A DNA stretch of 38,351 nucleotides, taken from NCBI GenBank assembly GCA_001790205.1, contig MGBU01000059.1:1-38351 (forward strand), in the 5' to 3' direction. The position numbers were made by a program, and so were the translations under genes. Position 1 is the stretch's first letter; every line of letters starts with the position of its first letter. Positions 3-35,884 of the stretch are shown in pieces. The DNA comes from Candidatus Rokubacteria bacterium GWA2_73_35 (lineage in GTDB: Bacteria > Methylomirabilota > Methylomirabilia > Rokubacteriales > CSP1-6). The notes under the pieces were generated by a model. It searched no databases, was not told the DNA's origin, and saw only the letters and a program-made list of their open reading frames with translations.

Positions 3-100
3 GTGAACGAATCGCGGTGTCGAGGGGCGCCACGGCTGCGCCGGGGCGCTCCGAGCGTCGGGGGGTTTGGGGGGCGCCCGGAGCCCCCCATGAAGTCAGT
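3..100. repeat. Copy A of a GC-rich dispersed repeat, abutting and including the murJ stop codon
   Basis: Aligns by eye with 33190..33315. Shared blocks are gtgaa[c/g]gaatcgcg, tgtcgaggggcgccacggc (19/19), and ggggcgcccggagccccccatga[a/c]gtcagt (one mismatch). The tca at 96-98 is the murJ stop. The copy may extend past the window edge. Confidence 0.8.
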
Positions 101-17307: not shown

Positions 17308-20300
17308 TCAGCATTCGTTGAAGCCGCACGACAGGCACTTCTTGCAGCCCTCCTCGTAGACGAAGGTCGCCTGGCCGCACTCCTTGCACAGGTCGCCGAT
17401 CCGCTTGCGGGCCTCGCCACCGCCGGGCGGCAGCCCGCTCGCCGGCTTCACCTGACCGGTGTGCTCGGCCAGCGTGCGCGCGAGCGCGTCCGGAAGCGAC
17501 AGGGTCTTGGCCGGCCCGAACCCCGTCGGCTGGCCGCCGCCAATGCGCGTGAGCTGGCTGATGACCTCTTCGAGTCGGCGCTGAGCCGACAGGTGCGAAG
17601 GGAGCCTCAGCGTGAGCGAAATCAAGCGGCCCAGCGCCTCGGCCACCGCCATCGTGTCCGAGCCCCCCTTGCCCACCTGGACGAACACCTCGAAGGGCTC
17701 CCCGTCGGGCGTCTCGTTGACCGTGATGAACGCGGTCCCGATGGGCGTCTCGGTCCGGTAGGTCGAGCCCGTGAGGCTCTTCGGCCGCGGGCGGATGACC
17801 GCCTGCCCGGTCGCGGCCGCCCCGGCGGCCTGGGCCTCCTTCTTGGCGCCCACGCCGACGTTCAGCACCTGCTCGCCCTTGCAGCCGTCGCGGAAAACGG
17901 TGATGCCGAGGCACCCGAGCTCCCACGCCAAGCGGTAGGCCTGGGCGACGTCCTCCTCGGTCGCGCCGTTCGCCAGGTTGATCGTCTTGGAGACGCCGTT
18001 GTCCGTGTAGCGCTGGAAGGCCGCCTGATGGCGGACGTGCCACTCGAAGGCGATCTCGTGCGACGTCTTGAACACCCGCGCGGCCCGCTCGGGCGCGCCG
18101 GGGATCCCGTGGAGGGCGCCGCGCCGGGCGATCTCCTGCATGAGCGCGTCGGAGTAGAAGCCCTGTTCCTTGGCGATGCGCTCGAAGGTCTCGTTGACGA
18201 ACGTGAGCACCCGCTCACCGTCCGGCTGCTTGACCCGGTGCTCGAAGGCAAGGGCGAAGATCGGCTCGACCCCGGACGAGCAGCCCGCGATCATCGAGAT
18301 CGTCCCGGTCGGCGCGATCGTCGTGACGGTCGAGTTCCGCATCGGCCGGTCGTTCCGGTAGATCGAGTGGCTCCAGTTCGGGAACGGCCCGCGCTCCTCG
18401 GCGAGCTTGGCCGACTGGTCGTGGGACTTCTCCTTCACGAACGCCATGAGGCGGTCGGCCAGGTCGATCGCCTCCTGGCTGTCGTAGGGGATGCCGAGCG
18501 TGAAGAGGAGATCGGCCCAGCCCATGATGCCGAGGCCGATGCGCCGGTTGGCCTTCACGGTGGCGTCGATCTCGGGCAGCGGGTACGGGTTCATCTCGAT
18601 GACGTCGTCCAGGAAGCGCACGCCGAGCCGCACCACGCGCTCCATCTCCTCCCAGTCGATGCTCCACTCGCCGTCCTCGCCCCGGCGGGCGAACTTGGAG
18701 ACGTTGAGCGAGCCGAGGTTGCAGGCCTCGTTCGGCAAGAGCGGTTGTTCACCGCACCCTCTGGACACATACCCATCGGTAAGCCAGGTGTCCGTTTCCG
18801 GCTCATAGAGATCGTACGTCGTCGCGGTTCCCGCGGGCTCGACGCCCAGGATCTTCGCACTGCCCGGCACCCCGGCGTGGAGGGTCTGGACCTCGTCACC
18901 GACCTTGCACCGATCCAATCGGAGCGGCGCAAAACCACAACCCTCCCGAGAGACGTAAAACTGATGACCGGCGGTCGCCCGGACAGCCCCGCCGTCCGAG
19001 AACCGCACGTCAAAGATGGGGGTATCCGAGTAGACTTCGACCCGCTCGACCCGACGCGGCCCCTTGACGGTCGTGATGAGATCGCCTGGGCGCACACCAT
19101 CGACGCGGCGTGGCCCCGCCGGGGTCGCCACCATGGTGTCGCCGGTAACGCACGGATTCGTCGCCTCGACCATGCCGATCTCGGGCGTCGGGTTCGCCGG
19201 GCTCGCGTTGATCCGGTCGATGAACACCATGCCCGGGTCGCCCGTCCGCCACGCCGCCCGCACGATCCGCTCGAAGACCTCCCGCGCCGACAGGCGCTCG
19301 ACGACCTGCCCCGAGTGAGGGTTGACCAGGTCGTACTCGGCGCCCGCCGCGAGCGCGTCCATGAACGCGTCGGTGGCGGCCACGGAGATGTTGAAGTTCG
19401 TGATGCCCCCGTCGAGCTTGCAGTCGATGAACTCGAGGATGTCGGGGTGATCGACCTTCAGGATGCCCATGTTCGCGCCGCGGCGCGTCCCGCCCTGCTT
19501 GACGGCCTCGGTGGCGCTGTTGAACACGCGCAGGAAGGAGACCGGCCCGGAGGCGCGGCCGCCCGTCGAGGCGACGATGTCGTCCTTCGGACGGAGGCGG
19601 GAGAAGGCGAACCCGGTGTTGTGAACGAACGCCATGCCGTGCGTTCCCGCGGCATACGTGTTCCATCCCTCGACGGAGAGGTCGTAGAAGGCCTTGGGCG
19701 CCGGTGCCCGGCGGACGGCTGCGATCTCCAAGCCACGGGTCGCCGCGCGCCGCAGCAGCCGTCCGAGACCGGCGTCGCGTGATGCGACCGTGTCCGCGAT
19801 CGCGAGCAGATCATCACGGCGGCACCGCCGGTTCTGATTGCACGACCACCGGCTCAGCTCTGCATGGCATGGGCCGGCGCCGTGACGAGACGATCCGATC
19901 ATACCGAGACCCCTGAGGCGATCGCGCCACGCGCGGAACGGCAGCCGAAGCGCGGTCTGCTTCCGGCTCGCCGACGTGAGCCGGACCCGCTTGTGCTCGC
20001 TCGCGACGTACGCTTCGATGTCGCCTCGCAGGTCATCCACCTGCGGGAGGGTGCAAAGCTGGACGTTGTGGATCGGCCGCTTCCCCCTCCTGTGGGGTGG
20101 CTTCACCGTCAGCGAGGGCTGATACCCGAGGAGGCTCATCAACCCCGCCAGGTCCTCAGCCATTTCACGGCTGGCCGTCGCGTAGGAAGGGCTGCCGTCG
20201 GGGGCCACGTACCCGTCGCTGTCGAGGAGGCCGGCCACGAAGGCGCGGACCACCGGCAGCGGCGACTTCGCGATGACCTCGGGGACGCGCACCCGCTCGT

Positions 20301-21369
20301 CTTTGGCGCCGACCTTCTGGAGCCCGCAGGCCTCGAGCATGTCGAGCACGAAGCGCTGGGTGAGGGTCGCGACACTGAGCAGGCCACGGCGGTCTTGCTG
20401 CATCGAGACGTTGATGCCGCACCCTGCCAGGACCGCCCGGACCTTGTCGAGTACGTCCGGCTCGCCGGAGAACCAGCGGAGCCGGTACTGGCGGAGCGCA
20501 GGAACGTACCCGAAGGAGCCATCGCCGAGGGTGAACCCGACGAGCCACCCGATGGATTCATCGATGACCAGGCTCCCGGACCGCTGGCGGGTCGTGTGTG
20601 GCCAGTAGCCGTCGGGGCGATCAGGGGCCAGGATGATGTCGCCGGCCGCCAGGTCGTCCGCGCGCACCTCCACGAGACCCTCCGGTCGCACGACCATGAA
20701 GGGATGCCACGCGCTCGTCTGGACCCGCGTGCCGTCGCGGGTCTCGACGAGCACTTGCGAGGCGGCCGGGACCTCGAATCGCCAGACGTGAGTCACATGA
20801 CGAAGTCCCGTCTGCCCAGTCTTCGGATCCATCGAGGCCGTGTTGATGTTCAGATCGCTCACGTCGAAGGCCACGCCCGCGCCATGCTGCGCGCCCGGTC
20901 GGCCGTCGGCCGTCGCTCGATTGACGAGAACCTCGATAGGCTCGAGACCGCAGAACGTGGTCCAGACCCGTGTATCTCCCGAGATACATCCCCCGCCGGA
21001 CTTATGAATGATCGCCGCGGCCTTGACGGAGTCGAAGATCTCCTCCATCGAGTCGCCGACGGGCAGCACGTAGCAGGCGGAGTACTGGAGCCCGTTGCCC
21101 TTCCCGGCGTTCATGAGGGTCGGCGAGTTCGGCAGGAAGTAGCCGTCCACCATGATGTCGTAGAAGGCGCTCGCGATCTCGCGCACCGCGGCCTGGCTCC
21201 GCCCGTACCGCGCCTCGCCCGCCGCGATGGAGCCCGCCACCCGCCAGCACATCTCCTCCGGGGTCTCGACGACCTCGCCCCCCTCCCGCATCAGGTAGCG
21301 CTCCCGGAGCACGCGCAACGCGGGCTCGGTCCACTTGCCTACCTTCGACGGGCGAGTCTCAGACAGCAT
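17308..21369 (-). CDS. nrdJ: Class II (adenosylcobalamin-dependent) ribonucleotide reductase precursor with two inteins
   Basis: 1353-aa ORF. The extein motifs match NrdJ: HKSGGG|[14 protein letters not shown]|[16 protein letters not shown], and a C-terminal CxxC..CxxC tail. The predicted spliced product is 764 aa. Confidence 0.93.
18757..19152 (-). mobile_element. Mini-intein (132 aa) at the NP|CGE catalytic-loop site, with a non-canonical C-terminus
   Basis: It begins CVTGDTMV (block A) and has TAGH (block B TxxH). Block F/G reads [21 protein letters not shown], followed by CGEQ. It therefore ends in Arg-Gly rather than His-Asn. Confidence 0.8.
19618..20988 (-). mobile_element. Full-length intein (457 aa) with a LAGLIDADG homing-endonuclease domain at the GGG|TGF site
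   Basis: It begins CISGDTRV and ends GMAFVHN|T. The two LAGLIDADG motifs are [11 protein letters not shown] and [13 protein letters not shown] content and codon usage are visibly lower than in the flanking extein. Confidence 0.9.
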
Positions 21370-21571
21370 GCGCCGCCTCCTTCGTCTTGTGGCCGGGCTT
21401 GACGATGTGCGTCAAGAACACAGTGCTCAGAGGCACAATGAATATCCTCCCATATGTTGTGGTGACCGCGAATCTAGCACGCAGAATCTAGCGGTCGTCA
21501 AGAAAAAAGGTATCCACCGGCCATCCACGGGATGTCCCCGGATCGACGGGGCCCGGTGGGGGTCGCGTGGT
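21370..21571. promoter_or_regulatory. Divergent nrdJ / TolC-family control region
   Basis: This is the only clearly AT-enriched stretch in the window. It holds two TTGACG -35-like hexamers, a T-tract, the palindrome CTTGACG-N5-CGTCAAG (21398..21416), a split dyad CACAA.ATAT..ATAT...TTGTG (21434..21461) and a 9-bp direct repeat gaatctagc (21470 and 21484). Confidence 0.5.
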
Positions 21572-28485: not shown

Positions 28486-29359
28486 GCGGGGCGAGGAAGC
28501 GCAGGAGCAGCGCGTTGACGCGCGCCGGCGCCTCCTGCTGGACCCAGTGGCTCACGCCCGGCAGCCGTACCAGGCGGAACGGCCCGCCGAAGTGCCGCCG
28601 CATCCCCCCGAGAAGCGCCGGACCGAGGAAGTGGTCGGCCGTCCCCCAGATCACGAGCGTCGGCGCCGCGATCGGCGGGTAGCGCCGCCCCGCCTGCGGG
28701 CGACGGAACATCGCGCGATACCAGTTGAGGGCGCCCGTGAGCGCGCCCGGCTTGGCGAACGCCTCGACGTACCGGACCACGTCGCGCCGCGTGAACGTGC
28801 CGGGCCGCGCGTGGTCCCAGGCGAGGCGCCGGAGCAGGCGGAACTCCCGGGCGGCGAGCAGCGCCTCGGGCGCGTCCGGAAGCTGGAAGAAGAACATGTA
28901 CCACGATCTCCGGAGCTGCTCGAGGTCGCCGCCCCAGATCGCGCGCGCGAACGCCGCCGGGTGGGGGCAGTTCAGCACCGCGAGCCGCGCCACCAGCTCC
29001 GGCCGGAGCATCGCCATGGCGTAGGCGACGGCGCCGCCCCAGTCGTGGCCGACGATCGCCGCGGGCCCCGCGCCCAGCGCGCGCACGAGCCCCGCGACGT
29101 CCTCGACGAGCTCGGTCATCCGATACGCCGGGACGCCCGGGGGCTTGTCGGAGTCGTTGTAGCCGCGCAGGTCGGGCGCCACGACGCGGAAGCCGGCCGC
29201 GGCGAGCGCCGGGATCTGGTGGCGCCACGAGTACCAGAACTCCGGGAAGCCGTGGAGCAGCACGACGAGCGGGCCCTGCCCCGCCACGACCGCGTGCAGG
29301 CGGACGCCGTTCGTGCCCACGAAGCGGTGCTCGAGGGGGGCCCGGGGCGCGCGCCTCAC
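28472..29359 (-). CDS. Alpha/beta hydrolase, epoxide-hydrolase-like
   Basis: HGFPEFWYSWRHQ and the nucleophile motif GHDWGG. The GTG at 29359 overlaps the TGA of the upstream LLM gene (GTGA). 295 aa. Confidence 0.85.
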   Translation of the reverse strand: MRRAPRAPLEHRFVGTNGVRLHAVVAGQGPLVVLLHGFPEFWYSWRHQIPALAAAGFRVVAPDLRGYNDSDKPPGVPAYRMTELVEDVAGLVRALGAGPAAIVGHDWGGAVAYAMAMLRPELVARLAVLNCPHPAAFARAIWGGDLEQLRRSWYMFFFQLPDAPEALLAAREFRLLRRLAWDHARPGTFTRRDVVRYVEAFAKPGALTGALNWYRAMFRRPQAGRRYPPIAAPTLVIWGTADHFLGPALLGGMRRHFGGPFRLVRLPGVSHWVQQEAPARVNALLLRFLAPLSGR

Positions 29360-30279
29360 ACCCACGGCAGCACCCGCGCGGCGAACGTCTCGAGCATGGC
29401 CGTCTCGGGGAAGTCGGCGAAGCCCAGCATCAGGTCCGTCGCGCCGGCCTTCGCGTACGCCGCGATCCGCTCGACGACCGCCTCGGGGGGCCCGGCGAGC
29501 ACGCTCCCGAGCAGCGGATGCTCGGCGCCGATCCCGCGCGTCGCGCGGAAGCGGGCGAGTGCGGCGGCCGCCGCGCGCGGGGTGCGCCCGAGGACCACGT
29601 CCACCTCGACGGAGCGCCGCACGTCGCCGGGCGCGCGCCCGTAGCCATCGAGCAGCGCGTCGAGCGCGTGGCAGCGGGCGGCGAGCGGCTCCGGCGCCAC
29701 GTACGACGCCTCCCAACCGTCGGCGAGTCGCGCGGCCAGGGCGAGAGCGGCCGGCCCCATCGCCGACACCCACACGGGGGGCCCCGGGCGCTGGACGGGC
29801 GGCGGGGCGAGCCGCGCCCCGCGCAGCGGGCCGAAGGCGCCGTCGTGGTCCACGGCCTCGCCGCGCCAGAGCGCCCGCACGATCCCGATCGCCGCCTCGA
29901 GCCGGACAAGCCGCGTGCGCGCGCCGGGATACTCGATGCCGTGGCACGTCCACCCGGCGGCGGTCGCGGCGTCCCCGGCGCCCACGCCGAGCCGCAGGTC
30001 GAGGCGGCCACCCGAGAGGTGGTCCACCGCGACGGCGCGCTTGGCGAGCCACGCCGGGTGGTGCGCGGCGCGGTCGAAGGCGTAGGTCACAGCCGGGCCG
30101 ATCCGCGCGCGCCCCGTCAGGACCGCGAGGGCCCCGAGCAGCGTGAAGCCGTCGTGCGTGAAGCCGAAGAGGCCGTCCCCGTACGTGATGCGCGCGTAGC
30201 CGAGCGCGTCCGCCGCGCGCCAGTAGCGGGCGAGGGCACGCACGTCGGTGGACCACGTCTGGACGCCGATCGCGATCAC
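29356..30279 (-). CDS. Luciferase-like (LLM class, probably F420/flavin-dependent) oxidoreductase
   Basis: GTG at 30279 gives (M)IAIGVQTW. TIM-barrel LLM pattern with LSGGRLDLRLGVG. 307 aa. The start is uncertain because no clear SD is present. Confidence 0.75.
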   Translation of the reverse strand: MIAIGVQTWSTDVRALARYWRAADALGYARITYGDGLFGFTHDGFTLLGALAVLTGRARIGPAVTYAFDRAAHHPAWLAKRAVAVDHLSGGRLDLRLGVGAGDAATAAGWTCHGIEYPGARTRLVRLEAAIGIVRALWRGEAVDHDGAFGPLRGARLAPPPVQRPGPPVWVSAMGPAALALAARLADGWEASYVAPEPLAARCHALDALLDGYGRAPGDVRRSVEVDVVLGRTPRAAAAALARFRATRGIGAEHPLLGSVLAGPPEAVVERIAAYAKAGATDLMLGFADFPETAMLETFAARVLPWV

Positions 30280-30296
30280 GCGAGGAGCATACCCGA

Positions 30297-30325
30297 TTGA
30301 CGCCTCCGGCGCCCCGGGGTAGAGT
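30297..30325 (+). promoter_or_regulatory. Sigma70-type promoter for the gene at 30334, leaderless or nearly so
   Basis: TTGACG (30297-30302), an exact 17-nt spacer, then TAGAGT (30320-30325). The ATG lies 8 nt after the -10 hexamer and no SD is present. Confidence 0.5.
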
Positions 30326-30333
30326 GCCCGGCG

Positions 30334-31068
30334 ATGCGCCCCGCGCTGCTCGCCGTGATCCTCCTCGCGCTCCTGGTACCGCCGGCCCGGGGCGAGACGC
30401 CGGTCGAGGCGGCGCGGGCCCTCGTCGCGCGCTACCACGAGGACCGCGCGGTGCTCGACCGGGCGCGCGACGTGCTCGAGGCGGCCCTCCAGCGGGAGCG
30501 CCAGGTCGAGACGCTCGTCGCGCTCTCCTACGTGTACTTCCTCCAGGGCGACGTCCGCGCGACCACCACGGAGGCGAAGCTCGCCGCCTACGACCGGGGC
30601 CGCGAGCTCGGGCGGCGGGCCATCGAGCTGGCGCCGAAGAGCCACGACGCCCACCTCTGGTACGCGATCAACACGGGCCGCTGGGGCCAGACGAAGGGCG
30701 TGCTCCGCTCCCTCTTCCTGCTGCCGACCGTGCGCGAGGAGATCGACGTCCTGCTCGAGCTGGACCCGCGCTCCGTGCGGGCCCACGCGTTCGCCGGCAA
30801 CGTCTTCCTGGAGGTGCCCCGCCTGTTCGGCGGCGACCGCGAGAAGGCCGCGGGCCACTTCAAGAAGGCGATCGAGCTCGACCCGCGCTTCACGGTGGCC
30901 CGCGTGGACCTCGCCCGCCTCCACATCGCCGAAGGCCGCTGGGCCGACGCCCGCCGCGAGCTCGAGCGCGTCGTCGCCGAGCGCGCGCCGAGGGTCGTCG
31001 CGGACTGGACCGTCAAGGACCTGCCACGCGCCCGCACGCTGCTCGAGTCCATCGCCGACAAGAAGTAG
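30334..31068 (+). CDS. Secreted TPR-like protein (TatT-like family)
   Basis: Signal peptide MRPALLAVILLALLVPPARG. Helical-repeat sequence with the pattern WYAINTGRWGQ..LELDP..FGGDREKAAGHFKKAIELDP. The family call is from memory. Confidence 0.45.
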   Translation: MRPALLAVILLALLVPPARGETPVEAARALVARYHEDRAVLDRARDVLEAALQRERQVETLVALSYVYFLQGDVRATTTEAKLAAYDRGRELGRRAIELAPKSHDAHLWYAINTGRWGQTKGVLRSLFLLPTVREEIDVLLELDPRSVRAHAFAGNVFLEVPRLFGGDREKAAGHFKKAIELDPRFTVARVDLARLHIAEGRWADARRELERVVAERAPRVVADWTVKDLPRARTLLESIADKK

Positions 31069-31079
31069 CGATCGGCGAG

Positions 31080-31712
31080 GTGCTGCGCCGGCTCCGCCGG
31101 ACGGCGCCGCGCTGGAACCCCACGGCGCTCGCCGTGATCGCCGAGGGCACGCGCGACCCGTTCCGCGTCCTCGTCGCCTGCATCCTGTCGCTGCGCACCC
31201 AGGACACGACCACGGGGCCCGCCTCCGCGCGCCTCTTCGCCGTCGCCGACACGCCCGCGGCGATGCGCCGCCTGGCGCCGCGGGCGATCGAGCGCCTCAT
31301 CTACCCGGTCGGGTTCTACCGGACCAAGGCCCGCGTCATCCTCGGCCTGTGCCGTGACCTGCTCGCGCGCTGGGCCGGGCGCGTGCCCGACGACCTCGAC
31401 GAGCTGCTGACGCTCAAGGGCGTCGGCCGGAAGACCGCGAACCTGGTCGTCACGATGGGCTACGGCAAGCCGGGCATCTGCGTGGACACGCACGTCCACC
31501 GCATCTCCAACCGGCTCGGGTACGTGCGGACGCCGAGCCCGGACGCGACGGAGACGGCCCTCCGCGCCAAGCTCCCGCGGCGCCACTGGATCGGCTACAA
31601 CGACCTCCTGGTCGCGTTCGGCCAGAACGTCTGCACCCCGATCTCGCCGCGCTGCTCGGCCTGTCCGGTGCGCGGCCTCTGCCGTCGCGTCGGCGTCACG
31701 ACCTCGCGCTAG
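31080..31712 (+). CDS. nth: Endonuclease III
   Basis: HhH-GPD motif LKGVGRKTANLVV, catalytic DTHVHRISNRLG, and the 4Fe-4S ligands CTPISPRCSACPVRGLC. GTG start. Confidence 0.9.
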   Translation: MLRRLRRTAPRWNPTALAVIAEGTRDPFRVLVACILSLRTQDTTTGPASARLFAVADTPAAMRRLAPRAIERLIYPVGFYRTKARVILGLCRDLLARWAGRVPDDLDELLTLKGVGRKTANLVVTMGYGKPGICVDTHVHRISNRLGYVRTPSPDATETALRAKLPRRHWIGYNDLLVAFGQNVCTPISPRCSACPVRGLCRRVGVTTSR

Positions 31713-32202
31713 TCGCGGAGCCTCCCGGGTCCGTCCCCGGCGGCGAGCCGAGGGGGCCGACCAGCTCGCCGAGGCGCGCGGTCCGGTAGTCCCAGAGCGC
31801 GCGCAGCACGCGCCGGACGAGGAGCCCGTGCGCCGCGCGGCCGAGCGGGCCGAGCGGCAGCCGGTACGTCACCCGGTCCTCCACCCACGTGCCGCCGGCC
31901 TCCTCCAGGAAGCGGTGGCGATGCTCCCAGCGCGCCCACGGCCCGCGCACCTGGACGTCGACGAAGCGGTACGGCGGATCCCACTCGCGGATGAACGCGC
32001 GCCACCGCACGGGCAGGCCGCGCCACGCCAGCCGGAGGTCGAGCACGGCGCCCGCGGCGAGCGCCGCCGGCGCGGACACGATCTCGAGGCGGTAGGCGGG
32101 CGGGGTGAGGCGGACGAGCGTCCCGGGATCGGCGAAGCACGCGAACACCTCGGCGCGCGCCCTCGCGAGCCACACGCGCGACTCGAGGATGTGATCGGCC
32201 AT
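31696..32202 (-). CDS. SRPBCC (cyclase/dehydrase-like) domain protein
   Basis: The ATG at 32202 gives MADHILESRVWLARARAEVFACFADP. 168 aa. The 3' ends of this gene and nth overlap convergently by 17 bp. Confidence 0.7.
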   Translation of the reverse strand: MADHILESRVWLARARAEVFACFADPGTLVRLTPPAYRLEIVSAPAALAAGAVLDLRLAWRGLPVRWRAFIREWDPPYRFVDVQVRGPWARWEHRHRFLEEAGGTWVEDRVTYRLPLGPLGRAAHGLLVRRVLRALWDYRTARLGELVGPLGSPPGTDPGGSATSARS

Positions 32203-32226
32203 GGCGCGCGGCCTTATGATAGGCGG

Positions 32227-33120
32227 GTGCCCGCGCTCAGTCAAACGCGCGCCTACCTCGCGCTGCTCGTGATCGTGGCGTTGTGGGGCAGCTATCCGGC
32301 GACGGCGAAGCTCGCGCTCCGCGACTTCTCGCCCTTCTTCCTCACCGCGGCCCGCTGCACGCTCGCCTCGGGCTTCCTCGTGGTCCTCCTCCTCCGCACG
32401 GGCGGCGCGGCGGTGCGCGCCGTGGAGGCCCGGACGCTCCGCATCTTCCTCGTCCTGGGCCTCGCGGGCATCTGGGGCTCGACGCAGTTCACCTATGTCG
32501 CGCTCCACTACACGACGGCCGGCAACGCCGTGATCCTCCAGGCCGCGGCGCCGGTCGGGGTCGCGCTGATGGCCCGCGCGTACCTCGGCGAGCGGCTCTC
32601 CCGCGCGCAGTGGCTCGGCGTCGGCGTCTCGGCGTTCGGCGTGCTGCTGGTCGTGACGAGCGGCCGCCTCGCCGCGCTCCGTCTCGAGGAGCTGCGCGCG
32701 GGCGACTTCCTCACGCTGGCGGCGCTCGGCGGGTGGTCCGTCTACACCGTCTACGGCAAGCGCGTGCTCGGCGAGCTGTCCCCGGCGCTCGCGACGACGG
32801 GCGCGTACGTCACCGGCACGCTCCTGATCCTGCCGACCGCGCTCCTCACGGCGCCCTTCTACCCCGCCCCGCGGCTCGCCTCGCCGGTCGCCTGGGCCGT
32901 CGTCTTCTACCAGGGGCTCCTTGGCGCGGTCGCGCACATCTGGTGGTACCGCGCGGTCCAGGTCGTGGGGCCTAGCCGGTCGGCGGTGTTCATGAACTTC
33001 CAGCCGATCGTCGGGATCGCGCTGGCGGCCGCCCTGCTCGCCGAGCCGATCGGCGCCTGGCAGCTCGGCGGCACCGCGTGCGTGCTCGCCGGCGTCGCCC
33101 TCACGACGCGCACACGCTGA
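32227..33120 (+). CDS. EamA/DMT family transporter
   Basis: Ten-TM, two-repeat layout (LWGSYPATAKLAL.. / ..FMNFQPIVGIALAAALLAE). GTG at 32227. A TATGAT hexamer at 32214-32219 suggests another short or leaderless 5' end. Confidence 0.8.
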   Translation: MPALSQTRAYLALLVIVALWGSYPATAKLALRDFSPFFLTAARCTLASGFLVVLLLRTGGAAVRAVEARTLRIFLVLGLAGIWGSTQFTYVALHYTTAGNAVILQAAAPVGVALMARAYLGERLSRAQWLGVGVSAFGVLLVVTSGRLAALRLEELRAGDFLTLAALGGWSVYTVYGKRVLGELSPALATTGAYVTGTLLILPTALLTAPFYPAPRLASPVAWAVVFYQGLLGAVAHIWWYRAVQVVGPSRSAVFMNFQPIVGIALAAALLAEPIGAWQLGGTACVLAGVALTTRTR

Positions 33121-33189: not shown

Positions 33190-33315
33190 GTGAAGGAATC
33201 GCGCCTACGCGATCCCGGTGAGGGGGCGCGTTGTCGAGGGGCGCCACGGCGCAGCATCGGCGCCCCGAGCGCTTGGGGGGCTTGTGGGGCGCCCGGAGCC
33301 CCCCATGACGTCAGT
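33190..33315. repeat. Copy B of the GC-rich dispersed repeat, abutting and including the nirK stop codon
   Basis: It has the same blocks as 3..100 plus a roughly 26-nt internal insertion (33204..33229). It contains the 8-bp inverted pair GGGGCGCC / GGCGCCCC. The tca at 33311-33313 is the nirK stop. Confidence 0.8.
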
Positions 33316-34360
33316 GGCCGCCGGCGCCGCGTGCGGCGGCGTGCGGCGTGAGCGCCCGGAAGATGTCCGGCCGCGCGTCGCCGCTCACGACCAGCGCGCC
33401 CAGCGCCCCCTTGTCCATCGCGCGCGAGAGGCTGTGGTCGACGAGCAGGAAGCGCCCGGGCACGTCCACCTTGAAGTCCACGATCGCGGCGCCTCCGGCG
33501 GGAACGAGCGTGGTCTGCACGTTGCGCTTCACGTCGCCGCCCACCGAGGCTTCCGGCCACACGCGATCGAACACCTCGCCGATCACGTGGAAGGACGCCA
33601 CGAGGTTGGGGCCGCCGTTGCCCACGTAGAGCCGCACCGTCTCGCCGGTCCGGGCCTGGAGCGCGCCGCCCTCCAGGAGCGCCCCGACGCGGCCGTTCCA
33701 GACCACGTATTCCGGCCGCTCGTCGCGCGCCTTGTCGGCGTCGAAGCGCTGCAGGCCCGGCACGCCGGTGCGGCCCCTCGTGTAGAACTCGCCCTGCATC
33801 ACGTAGTACTCGCGGTCGACGCGCGGCAGCCCCTCCTTCGGCTCCACGAGGATCAAGCCGTACATGCCGTTGGCGACGTGCGTCGGGATCGGGGGCGTGG
33901 CGCAGTGGTAGACGTAGAGGCCCGGGTTCAGCGCCTTCCACTCGAAGGCGCCCGTCTGACCGGGTACCACCTGGGTCACCGCGGCGCCGCCGCCCGGCCC
34001 GGTCACCGCGTGCAGGTCGATGGAGTGCATGAACGTGCTGGTGTCGCGGTTGCGCAGCCGGATCTCCACCGTGTCGCCCTCGCGCACGCGCAGCATGGGG
34101 CCCGGGACGCTGCCGCCGAAGGTCCAGAAGGTGTACTCGACGCCGCTCGCGAGCGTGCCCTTCTCCTCGGTCGTCTCGAGGTCCACCAGCACCCGCGCCG
34201 GCCGCGTGCGCTCGATGGCCGGCGGGACCATCGGAGGCTTGAGCAGCGCCGCCTTCGCCTCGGTCGCCGAATCCGCTCGCTGCGCCTTCTGCGCCGCCAC
34301 GGCGCCGGCCATCAGACCGAGGACCGCCACTGCCGCGATCACGCCCAGGGGCCGCTTCAT
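33311..34360 (-). CDS. nirK: Copper-containing nitrite reductase
   Basis: ATG at 34360 with SD GAGGAGGA and a signal peptide. Cu-ligand motifs HSIDLH and [20 protein letters not shown]. Two-cupredoxin layout, 349 aa. Confidence 0.88.
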
Positions 34361-34490: not shown

Positions 34491-34961
34491 CTACCCGAGC
34501 TTCTTGACCTCGGCGAGGATCTTGTCCGGCTGCGGCAGCTCGCCCTTGGCGTACCGCTCGACGAACCGCACCCGGCCCGTCGGGTCGAGGACGAACGTGG
34601 CGCGGACGTTGGCGTTCCAGTCGGGCCAGTAGACGCCGTAGTCCTTCGCCACCGTCCGCTGCACGTCGGACAGCAGCGGGTAGCGGCTGATCCCGACCGA
34701 CTTCGCCCAGTTCTCGTGGCTGAAGGGGCTGTCCGTGCTGATACCCAGCACCTGGGTATTCGCCGCCTCGAAGTCGCCGACGCGCCTGTCGAAGGCGGGC
34801 ATGCAGGTGCTTCAGCCCGGGGTCCAGTCGAGCGGATAGAAGAGCAGGATGACGTTCCTGCCCCGGTAGTCCCGGAGGGAGATTTCCTTGAGCCCGATCG
34901 TCTTGAGCGTGAAGTCGGGCGCGGTGTCCCCCACGTTGAGCGTCTTGGTGTCAGCGCTCAC
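34491..34961 (-). CDS. AhpE/BCP-like peroxiredoxin with in-frame TGA (predicted selenocysteine, U50)
   Basis: Track ORFs 34812..35741 (C-terminal part) and 34491..34802 share one frame, separated only by TGA (34812-34814). The joined product reads ..NVILLFYPLDWTPG-U-STCMPAF..VLGISTDSPFSHENW..ATFVLDPTGRV. The GTG at 34961 has SD AAGGGGGA and overlaps the MBL gene stop. Confidence 0.7.
34741..34811 (-). promoter_or_regulatory. Candidate bacterial SECIS structure directly 3' of the UGA
   Basis: In mRNA numbering from the UGA, nt 4-11 (AGCACCUG) pair with nt 61-68 (CAGGUGCU). Nt 17-23 (CCGCCUU) pair with nt 46-52 (GAGGCGG). Nt 24-27 (CGAC) pair with nt 34-37 (GUCG), closing the loop AGGCGC about 25 nt after the UGA. 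Confidence 0.45.
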
Positions 34962-35884
34962 GAGTGTTGTCCCCCTTTCGAGAATTTGCGCGGCGTGCGC
35001 GCGATGATACCACGCTCCTCCCGGGCCTTCGCGGGCGGCTTGCGCGCGGCGGCCCAGGCGCGGTCGCGTCGGCTCTCGAGCGCCGCGTCGGGGAGGCCCA
35101 GGTGGCGCGCCGCGGTCACGACCCGGCCGGTGGCCCAGAGCCGCTCGAAGCGCCGCTCCCAGCGCGTGTCGCGCAGCGCGTGGTGGTCGAGAATCACGCG
35201 GCACCCGGTCGCGTCCACGATCCGCAGCAGGTTCTCGACGCCGCGCTCGATCAGCGCCGCGCCGAGCTCCCGCTCGATGTAGGAGGGCGGGCCCGACACG
35301 TAGAGGAGCGTCGGGCGCTCCCGCACGAGGTACGCCGCGGCGACCGGCGAGATCGGCCCCTGCACGTCGGACGCGAACACGAACCGCTCGCGCGCATCCT
35401 CGTCCTCGACCGTGAGCGCGAGCACCGCGCCCAGCGCGGTGCCGTCGGGGCCGTGCGGCAGCGGCGGCGAGACGCGGAGCGTGAGCCCCTCGCGGCGCGC
35501 CGCCAGGCCGTCGGCGCTCTCGACGCGCGCCACCGGCGCGAGCGCCTTCCAGAGGTCCGCGGCCCGCCGCGCCTGGCGCCCGCTCACCATGCGCCGCGGG
35601 TCCTTCACGAGCACGCGGCGGCCCGCGTAGGTCGCCGCGTCGGAACGGAAGTGGTCCTCGTGGTAGTGGCTCACGAAGACGAGCGTCGCGCGCGTCGCCC
35701 ACGCGGAGATCCGGTCGTTGGCGCGGCGGAGCGCCTCCCACTCCTCCTCGGTCGGCGGCAGCCCGAACCGCGCGGGCGCGAGCGTCGCCCCGGGGTCGAT
35801 CAGGAGGCCGGCCCCGTGGAGCTCGACGTAGGTCGCCATGGACCGCACGCCGAGCGACTCGGCCGCGAGCGGAAGGACCTTCAC
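34958..35884 (-). CDS. MBL-fold metallo-hydrolase
   Basis: 308 aa with the HxHxDH motif (VSHYHEDH). The stop overlaps the peroxiredoxin GTG (GTGA). Confidence 0.75.
   Translation of the reverse strand: MKVLPLAAESLGVRSMATYVELHGAGLLIDPGATLAPARFGLPPTEEEWEALRRANDRISAWATRATLVFVSHYHEDHFRSDAATYAGRRVLVKDPRRMVSGRQARRAADLWKALAPVARVESADGLAARREGLTLRVSPPLPHGPDGTALGAVLALTVEDEDARERFVFASDVQGPISPVAAAYLVRERPTLLYVSGPPSYIERELGAALIERGVENLLRIVDATGCRVILDHHALRDTRWERRFERLWATGRVVTAARHLGLPDAALESRRDRAWAAARKPPAKAREERGIIARTPRKFSKGGQHS

Follow-up and report, generated by a model that had tools for sequence, protein, structure and literature searches.

A conserved in-frame UGA at the peroxidatic position of a Rokubacterial peroxiredoxin and a candidate two-hairpin signal for its decoding

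The 38,351-nt contig MGBU01000059.1 of Candidatus Rokubacteria bacterium GWA2_73_35 (assembly GCA_001790205.1), referred to below as the window, has a G+C content of 73.7% and carries on its minus strand a peroxiredoxin (Prx) gene whose reading frame contains exactly one internal stop codon, a TGA at 34814-34812 within the local peptide F-Y-P-L-D-W-T-P-G-[TGA]-S-T-C-M-P. An earlier reading of this DNA, made from the sequence alone, had described two open reading frames (ORFs) in the same frame split by this TGA, and had proposed that the joined 156-residue product is a complete peroxiredoxin with selenocysteine (Sec) at the position of the peroxidatic cysteine (Cp). The ORFs are arranged as described there. 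The UGA is followed within the coding region by two RNA hairpins, H1 and H2, and the gene lies between a PRK04286-family gene and nirK. The coordinates of these features are collected in Table 1, in which RNA positions are counted from the U of the UGA as +1; position n corresponds to window coordinate 34815 - n on the minus strand.

Table 1. Features of the peroxiredoxin locus in the window (MFE, minimum free energy structure; SD, Shine-Dalgarno).
Feature	Coordinates	Strand	Description and basis
Peroxiredoxin coding sequence	34491..34961	-	156 codons including the predicted Sec; start GTG 34959-34961, stop TAG 34491-34493; motif P-L-D-W-T-P-G-U-S-T-C; sequence, translation, PF00578
In-frame UGA, predicted Sec residue 50, peroxidatic (Cp) position	34812..34814	-	Conservation, Cys orthologues, solved structures
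Cys53 codon UGC, U-x-x-C, candidate resolving residue	34803..34805	-	TGC in 77/77 Rokubacterial Sec sequences
Hairpin H1	34763..34798 (+17..+52; extendable +14..+55)	-	Lower stem CCGCCU[U]CGA/UCGAGGCGG with bulged U; variable apex, loop ~+34..37
Hairpin H2	34741..34759 (+56..+74)	-	AUACCCAG-GUG-CUGGGUAU, 8 bp, triloop G64 U65 N66 (34751-34749); candidate SelB-binding apex
Outer helix, window-specific, competing	34747..34811 (+4..11 AGCACCUG with +61..68 CAGGUGCU)	-	In the window's free MFE; not conserved
Upstream partner, PRK04286-family hypothetical protein	34958..35884	-	TGA stop overlaps the Prx GTG start (GTGA, 34958-34961)
SD-like AAGGGGGA before the Prx start	34970-34977	-	Sequence
NirK copper-containing nitrite reductase	33311-34360	-	TIGR02376, 357 bits, above cut-off; directly downstream of Prx

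With Cys substituted for the TGA, the product covers positions 1-123 of the 124 in the AhpC-TSA profile (PF00578; E = 1.2e-40), which confirms that the peroxiredoxin is complete. A phmmer search against all PDB chains placed the TGA opposite the peroxidatic Cys of Prx1/2/4 (FYPLDFTFVCPT) and of Mycobacterium tuberculosis AhpE, and P-L-D-W-T-P-G-[UGA] aligned to FYPLDFTFVC of solved peroxiredoxins and to TPGC of Cys orthologues. Alignment to Cys homologues had been suggested in the sequence-only reading as a check on its assignment of the TGA; the TGA column is the Cp column in these alignments, as had been claimed. The closest Cys orthologue was modelled with AlphaFold at moderate confidence (pLDDT 75.9), and the best mutual structural match of this model was M. 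tuberculosis AhpE (TM 0.86 by query and 0.85-0.87 by target; 4X0X/4X1U/1XVW), closely trailed by Prx1/2 and Bcp4, with TM values for Prx1/2, AhpE, and Bcp4 spanning 0.81-0.86. None of the NCBIfam peroxiredoxin equivalogs reached its cut-off with the whole protein, and membership in the PrxU equivalog (NF040737) was rejected at 81.3 bits against a curated cut-off of 270. Going by the definitions used in the literature, the protein is a member of the "Prx" selenoproteins with TxxU.

Homologues were sought in a collection of 5.8 billion predicted proteins, and all statements on its entries refer to the matches listed. The loci compared comprised a metagenome set of 91 (the best 80 of 504 relatives, 10 loci behind one truncated protein, and the window) and a species-genome set made up of the best 80 of 109 relatives, from named Rokubacteria and Methylomirabilota. 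At the RNA level, 77 distinct Rokubacterial Sec sequences were used for codon counts, 76 distinct genome sequences for pairing, and 109 distinct Sec sequences for loops. A TGA stands at the recoded codon in 170 of 171 related loci: in all 91 of the metagenome set (10/10 behind the truncated protein, 80/80 of the best relatives, and the window) and in 79/80 of the named genomes. The 48 codons upstream of it are intact and in frame at every TGA locus, and the frame is intact on both sides. Purifying selection is equal upstream and downstream of the TGA, with pN/pS of 0.27 and 0.26, respectively. These loci show an intact gene, with selection acting on either side of a conserved UGA at Cp, and there are Cys orthologues; the earlier argument that a nonsense mutation was unlikely is upheld by these figures.

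The codons that flank the TGA vary synonymously (CCC/CCG/CCA and GGC/GGT), and the codon after it always encodes Ser, as AGC (54), TCC (19), or TCG (4) among 77 sequences. This switch between Ser codon families indicates selection at the amino-acid level on a codon that would go unread were the TGA to end translation. Since TGA is the ordinary stop of 12 of the 14 supported genes in the window, a reassigned genetic code is excluded; the stop of the peroxiredoxin gene itself is TAG. If the TGA were nevertheless a true stop, the locus would hold a pseudogene or a split gene, with a 49-residue N-terminal peptide and a 103-residue C-terminal fragment restarted at the ATG four codons on (+13..15). 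Gene callers annotate it in this way everywhere, but the equal selection on the two halves argues otherwise, as does the conservation of the three codons between TGA and ATG as amino acids (Ser by its three codons, Cys in 77/77). The Met at this ATG belongs to the family sequence and occurs also in the Cys forms (CSTCMPAF), no SD sequence precedes it in the window, and the catalytic residue would be absent from both fragments. We regard a true stop as extremely improbable. A sequencing or assembly error that hides a TGC or TGT has in its favor that TGA and TGC are one base apart and that a close relative, L091/L117 (L numbers denote related loci), has TGC, but the TGA recurs in ~170 assemblies made independently, in many studies and on many platforms, by which this explanation is effectively refuted.

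In protein databases the gene is represented mostly by its downstream part. Among the matches listed there were ~22 full-length (155 aa) homologues with TPGCSTC and hundreds of proteins of 102-104 aa that start at the Met four codons past the TGA, named "peroxiredoxin", "AhpC", or "hypothetical" in the collection; no full-length U-containing entry was found among them. The sequence-only reading had predicted that ORF callers would split or truncate the gene in this manner. A search of a representative library with the C-terminal fragment returned many entries of ~100-108 aa at 35-50% identity with the same Met start, and Sec forms of this type of Prx therefore appear widespread beyond Rokubacteria.

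The named genomes with the gene (best 80 of 109) are almost all metagenome-assembled genomes (MAGs) of Candidatus Rokubacteria, Rokuibacteriota, or Methylomirabilota. The Sec-Prx gene is near-universal in its phylum and is stored as fragments in databases. GTDB places Rokubacteria inside Methylomirabilota, and NCBI treats Rokuibacteriota and Methylomirabilota as separate candidate phyla. The closest named relative among the matches listed is RIFCSPLOWO2_02_FULL_73_56 (89% identity), and the metagenome contig L011 is 97% identical. A Rokubacteria-type locus with the SDR, PRK04286-family, and Sec-Prx genes was also seen in MAGs labelled Verrucomicrobiia, Binatia, Actinomycetota, or the archaeon Nitrosocosmicus (L118, L126, L139, L167, L170, L171, and L177); these off-label contigs are probably binning contamination.

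Cys-form orthologues carry TGC or TGT at the TGA codon and share with the TGA forms a syntenic block of genes for a luciferase-like monooxygenase, tRNA_edit, SDR, the ~315-aa PRK04286-family protein, and Prx. Since the block is shared, the two forms are orthologues in which Sec and Cys have been exchanged, and L091/L117 is a near-identical, recent TGA-to-TGC variant. Pairing of Sec and Cys forms is a standard criterion for selenoprotein calls that is independent of the selenocysteine insertion sequence (SECIS) (PMC13188914). As TGA is otherwise the normal stop in the window, the codon is recoded at this site specifically, almost certainly to selenocysteine.

A related possibility is that the UGA is recoded through a SECIS and SelB to Cys, by a tRNA-Sec-like Cys tRNA (tRNA-ReC/SelC*), either always or under selenium scarcity. 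Such tRNAs have been reported to read UGA as Cys, given a SECIS, in several soil and sediment phyla (PMC13582414), and the Cys orthologues indicate that the enzyme works with Cys there. However, tRNA-ReC was found mainly in genomes with UXXU motifs and not in Methylomirabilota specifically (PMC13582414), and no such tRNA was found in the related loci examined. It would also be hard to explain why a costly UGA and SECIS were kept in ~170 lineages when the one-base change to TGC was available and did occur in L091/L117. We consider Cys recoding very unlikely. Four 93-95 nt "tRNAs" reported by ARAGORN (L117:833-925, L132:5028-5122, L137:4921-5014, and L142:13776-13868) were considered as allo-tRNA or tRNA-ReC candidates and rejected as GC-rich false positives, as they have ordinary anticodons, poor cloverleaves, and no canonical T-loop.

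The U-x-x-C motif noted in the sequence-only reading is present in all 77 distinct Rokubacterial Sec sequences, where the Cys53 codon is invariably TGC, and a Cys at U+3 is found in 79/79 Sec forms from genomes. It is missing in distant Sec homologues (U-T-K-E, U-S-R-E, and U-T-V-Q) and in one Cys orthologue. Because it is invariant in Rokubacterial Sec forms and missing in the distant ones, the motif is, on present comparisons, a feature of the Rokubacterial clade. In the model of the Cys orthologue, the active-site helix begins at Cp, and both Cp and Cp+3 lie in its first turn. The enzyme would reduce peroxides via a selenenic acid at Sec50, and in the Rokubacterial clade Cys53 would probably resolve Sec50 within the same molecule, forming a selenenylsulfide in the opening turn of the active-site helix. 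The positions of the two residues in the model make a Sec50-Cys53 selenenylsulfide plausible.

The RNA downstream of the UGA was folded with and without constraint. Folded freely, the MFE of the window is a single long hairpin (z = -2.5) with the apical loop GUCG at +34..+37, ~30 nt past the UGA. The three stacked helices described in the sequence-only reading do form in this structure, but the outermost helix was not retained as part of a conserved structure: it is 77% paired across relatives, which is no better than shuffles, and many relatives are unable to form it. With +1..+13 kept unpaired, to mimic their place inside the ribosome, the window folded as H1 and H2 and the outer helix was gone. 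Under the same constraint H2 formed in 107 of the 109 distinct sequences. H1 was present in the MFE of 49/56 sequences, and a de novo RNAalifold run retained no helix other than H2. H2 occurs only once in the window.

Both hairpins are retained as base pairs. Over the 76 genome sequences, 95.3% of cells are paired, compared with 32-39% when the partners are slid, and there are 14 doubly changed cells, a number matched by none of 500 shuffles. Taken separately, 93% of the cells in H1 and 99% in H2 are paired. Pair 18-51 of H1 occurs as C-G, G-C, U·G, and U-A, and pair 58-72 of H2 as A-U, G-C, and G·U, with compensatory changes in H2 at pairs 58-72 and 63-67. The wobble bases paired in H1 are frozen (CCC in 76/77, GCC in 77/77, and GCG in 73/73), and so are further paired codons (ACC in 77/77, CAG in 76/77, and CTG in 76/77). 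Codons that are rare in the gene are fixed in H2, with GGT in 77/77 and AAT in 72/76, whereas the rest of the gene uses GGC and AAC. Fourfold codons across the gene have a synonymous entropy of 1.0-1.6 bits. Unpaired wobble positions are free to vary, at Val+21 in the H2 loop, Val+11 in the H1 loop, and Ala+17 in the linker. Codon +18 changes its amino acid (N, H, D, S, or G) but is always xAU or xGU, by which pairing is retained. Over codons +1..+24 the synonymous divergence (pS) is 0.22, against 0.43 in the rest of the gene. H1 and H2 are both under selection at the RNA level.

Both hairpins were scored against the bacterial SECIS consensus (bSECISearch; PMC13188914), which specifies loops 3-9 nt long on upper stems of 4-16 bp, an MFE of <= -7.5 kcal/mol, one G or more among the two leading loop positions (N1-G-[G|U]-N-N2), and a distance of 16-37 nt from the UGA to the apical loop. 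H1 has loops of 3-8 nt and dG of -11.5 to -23.7, with size, stem, and energy inside the consensus in 109/109 sequences; its loop starts at +30..34, which falls within the spacing range in all 109. H2 has loops of 3-5 nt, 7-8 bp, and dG of -7.9 to -13.6, also inside the consensus in 109/109. Its loop starts with G-U in all 109, giving a G within the two leading positions throughout (G-U-N closed by G-C, A-U, or G·U), and fits the published SelB-loop pattern N1-G-[G|U]-N-N2 (PMC13188914). The spacing claimed in the sequence-only reading, an apical loop ~25 nt from the UGA and within the range of bacterial SECIS elements, thus needs amendment: the H1 loop does lie within 16-37 nt, but at ~30 nt rather than ~25 nt, and the conserved loop of SelB type is at +64, outside the range.

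The Cys orthologues bear on which of the two hairpins SelB would recognize. In five Cys lineages H1 was retained (7-9 of 9 pairs), and H2 was damaged in four. In L187 and L100 the same T-Q-V/I-L-G-I residues are encoded with CUC/CUU and GGA, and the dG of H2 is reduced to -0.8 and -2.4; in L098 the H2 loop is altered to CUA; and in the L092 group the closing pair of H2 is broken. The recent variant L091/L117 is the only Cys lineage that still has H2. Conversely, two distant Sec homologues have both H1 and H2 at the same coordinates but with different nucleotides: L195 (L195:234-310; 41% GC, TYT-U-SREMP), with H2 as ACACUCAA-GUA-UUGGGUGU, and L196/197 (L196:349-425; 63% GC, TPV-U-TVQMP), with H2 as AUGCCCAG-GUU-CUGGGCAU. 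The changes in these stems are compensatory. Fold z-scores over +14..+75 are -2.4 for L195, -5.8 for L196/197, and -2.7 for the window.

It could be argued that H1 alone is a canonical SECIS, with SelB bound at its loop (+34..37), and that H2 is an accessory that blocks the pairing of +61..68 with +4..11, pauses the ribosome, or stabilizes the mRNA. The spacing, loop size, stem, and energy of H1 agree with this in all 109 sequences, H1 is under RNA-level selection and is rebuilt from a different sequence in the distant L195 and L196, the H1 loop of the window (GUCG) has G first, and the competing outer helix, which H2 would counteract, occurs in about half of the sequences. Against it, the H1 loop is variable (GUGA, AUCG, AUCC, ACCC, CAU, and others), H1 is unchanged in every Cys orthologue while the decay falls on H2, and the H2 loop is invariant and fits the SelB-loop consensus. 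We therefore consider it rather unlikely that H1 acts alone. A bipartite signal with H2 as the SelB site is favored because the H2 apex resembles that of the Escherichia coli fdhF SECIS, because H2 decays in Cys orthologues, and because the arrangement recurs in distant homologues.

In the mechanism we propose, the ribosome would stand at the UGA with the first ~13 nt downstream within the mRNA channel, and the next RNA would fold as the adjacent H1 (+14/17..+52/55) and H2 (+56..+74). SelB with Sec-tRNA(Sec) would bind this RNA and, competing with release factor 2, bring Sec into the A site. H1 would serve as a looped-out spacer that places H2 where the canonical bacterial SECIS hairpin sits. 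With H1 looped out, and ~10-13 single-stranded nt between the UGA and the H1/H2 junction, G64 would effectively stand at ~+22..28, a position like that of a canonical SECIS. On the comparative evidence we lean somewhat towards the H2 apex as the SelB contact. The fuller proposal is of a bipartite SECIS whose SelB-binding hairpin, ~60 nt past the UGA and at about twice the 37-nt maximum, is brought to the mRNA entrance by the ~40-nt fold of H1, in a layout that would be ancient, as Rokubacteria have it in common with unrelated lineages of 41% and 63% GC, and would coexist with the +23 SECIS of other homologues; we judge the chances for and against it to be about equal. The two-hairpin signal itself has strong comparative support from synonymous freezing, covariation, recurrence in distant homologues, and decay in Cys orthologues, and its geometry offers a simple rationale.

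Several observations weigh against this interpretation. The covariation counts are modest, as the region is strongly conserved, and kinship alone can let related sequences outscore shuffles without any structure. No single hairpin combines all bacterial SECIS features in all sequences: neither of the two leading positions of the H1 loop is a G in 41/109 (AUCG, AUCC, ACCC, CAU, and others), and the H2 loop, at +63/64 and ~60 nt from the UGA, is beyond the 16-37 nt range in 109/109. The distant Sec homologues L193 (1489-1570) and L198 (989-1070) are without H2 and have a short hairpin with the loop UGGAG at +23..27 and covarying stems. To our knowledge, no functional bacterial SECIS has been documented at the linear distance of H2 from its UGA, and a literature search on distal or tandem bacterial SECIS elements found nothing. 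In the canonical SECIS, a 6-8 bp stem carries the loop G ~20 nt downstream of the UGA, and in E. coli this spacing is tight (PMC4605307). Genes for the Sec machinery were also not found near the peroxiredoxin. The window has no tRNA, no Rfam family match, and no SelA, SelB, or SelD domain in any supported ORF; selA, selB, selD, and tRNA-Sec were not found by tblastn with E. coli SelA, SelB, and SelD and by ARAGORN in 1.7 Mb of related flanks, which cover Prx neighbourhoods only; and no other selenoprotein genes were found in 0.48 Mb of related DNA, where each remaining candidate proved to be an ordinary stop with a neighbour in frame behind it.

Some support for Sec use in the lineage comes from the literature at the level of the phylum. 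A 2026 review cites a Methylomirabilota MAG with 63 predicted selenoprotein genes (PMC13188914), which may not be a Rokubacterium, as the review does not say what taxonomy it follows, and Sec-type [NiFeSe] hydrogenases have been reported in Methylomirabilota (PMC13582414). A literature search on Rokubacteria and selenocysteine found no direct paper. The presence of the +23 short hairpin in some distant homologues and of the H1-H2 tandem in others suggests that the wider Sec-peroxiredoxin family seems to have two SECIS layouts. Weighing all of the above, we hold it very likely that the gene encodes an intact, AhpE-like peroxiredoxin of 156 residues in Rokubacteria/Methylomirabilota, in which the UGA at Cp is decoded as Sec.

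The conserved unit around the peroxiredoxin consists of SDR, PRK04286-family, and Prx genes; the upstream gene was seen in 181 loci and the SDR in 146. The 4-nt overlap between the stop of the upstream gene and the Prx start is also found in L001-L010 and L091, which suggests translational coupling. The PRK04286-family protein has no Pfam match, and its NCBIfam matches to "hypothetical protein" entries are all sub-threshold. The ORF at 34812-35741 continues the Prx frame across this upstream gene. Downstream, nirK adjoins the peroxiredoxin in the window, as the sequence-only reading had remarked, but this adjacency is not conserved: it is shared only with the 97%-identical L011 (2 of ~180 loci), and Polyketide_cyc or EamA genes take the place of nirK elsewhere. 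A functional link to nirK through peroxynitrite was dropped for this reason. In the 63%-GC lineage, a weak match to GRDB (glycine reductase selenoprotein B family, PF07355) follows the Sec-Prx gene at L196:748-1428, hinting at a selenoprotein-rich neighbourhood.

Elsewhere in the window, a ribonucleotide reductase large subunit of 1367 aa is encoded at 17308-21411 on the minus strand, and is interrupted by an intein that bears a LAGLIDADG homing-endonuclease domain (Pfam Ribonuc_red_lgC, Intein_splicing, and LAGLIDADG_3). Long ORFs overlap on opposite strands at 29356-31296 (-)/30301-31068 (+) and at 31411-33120 (+)/31696-33180 (-), which is typical of DNA with 74% G+C and misleads ORF lists; Pfam supports a TPR protein at 30301-31068 (+) and an EamA transporter in the C-terminal part of 31411-33120 (+).

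For annotation, at least 79 species genomes of Rokubacteria/Methylomirabilota carry the gene, and once its halves are joined, the catalytic residue is regained in what appears to be a core antioxidant enzyme of an abundant, uncultured phylum of soil and groundwater. For the evolution of Sec and Cys, it offers a natural experiment in which syntenic orthologues went to Cys and H2 then decayed by synonymous changes. Bacterial SECIS models miss ~13% of selenoprotein genes (BSepDB). The two-hairpin signal is a candidate for one missing class of SECIS and could improve selenoprotein gene finders; if the bipartite SECIS is real, it could account for some of the bacterial selenoprotein genes (~13%) without a canonical SECIS.

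The sequence-only reading had cautioned that the class is not new, and the TxxU peroxiredoxin selenoproteins, such as PrxU of Eubacterium acidaminophilum, have indeed long been known; the family is abundant in Sargasso Sea/GOS data. The Rokubacterial protein shares with it the AhpC/TSA (PF00578) fold, Sec at the peroxidatic Cys in PxxxTxxU, widespread Cys homologues, and a SECIS that would likewise lie inside the coding region just past the UGA (PMC13188914; PMC1088965). It differs from PrxU in size (156 aa against a 233-position profile, with 81 bits against the cut-off of 270), and from the known TxxU forms in its extra Cys at U+3, in being confined to Rokubacteria/Methylomirabilota MAGs, and in its predicted signal of two hairpins with the consensus-type loop at +64. 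The "Prx-like thiol:disulfide oxidoreductase" selenoproteins are related to PF00578 and have a thioredoxin-type U-x-x-C motif, as here, but are described as only distant kin of Prx with UXXC instead of TXXU (PMC1088965). On this definition, membership in that family was rejected, since TxxU is intact in the Rokubacterial protein and U stands at Cp. M. tuberculosis AhpE (1XVW/4X0X) is ~35% identical to the modelled Cys orthologue and has the same size of ~155 residues (sequence E = 1e-21), but it has Cys at Cp, no Cys at Cp+3, and no recoding. The conserved Cp+3 Cys of the Rokubacterial clade suggests a resolution step unlike the 1-Cys mechanism of AhpE.

The closest parallel to the RNA signal is the E. 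coli fdhF SECIS. Its apex, GCA-GGUC-UGC, is resembled by the H2 apex CA-G·GUN·C-UG (CA-GGUCA-UG in some genomes), the two agree in having 8 nt between hairpin base and loop G, and the fdhF-type stem of 6-8 bp with a conserved loop G (PMC4605307) is likewise found in H2. In contrast to fdhF, the bulged U is not in H2 but in H1, and the loop is at +64..66 rather than +22..25, with the ~40-nt H1 in between. The class of TxxU peroxiredoxin selenoproteins is known, and what is unusual in the Rokubacterial gene is the layout of its two-hairpin decoding signal.

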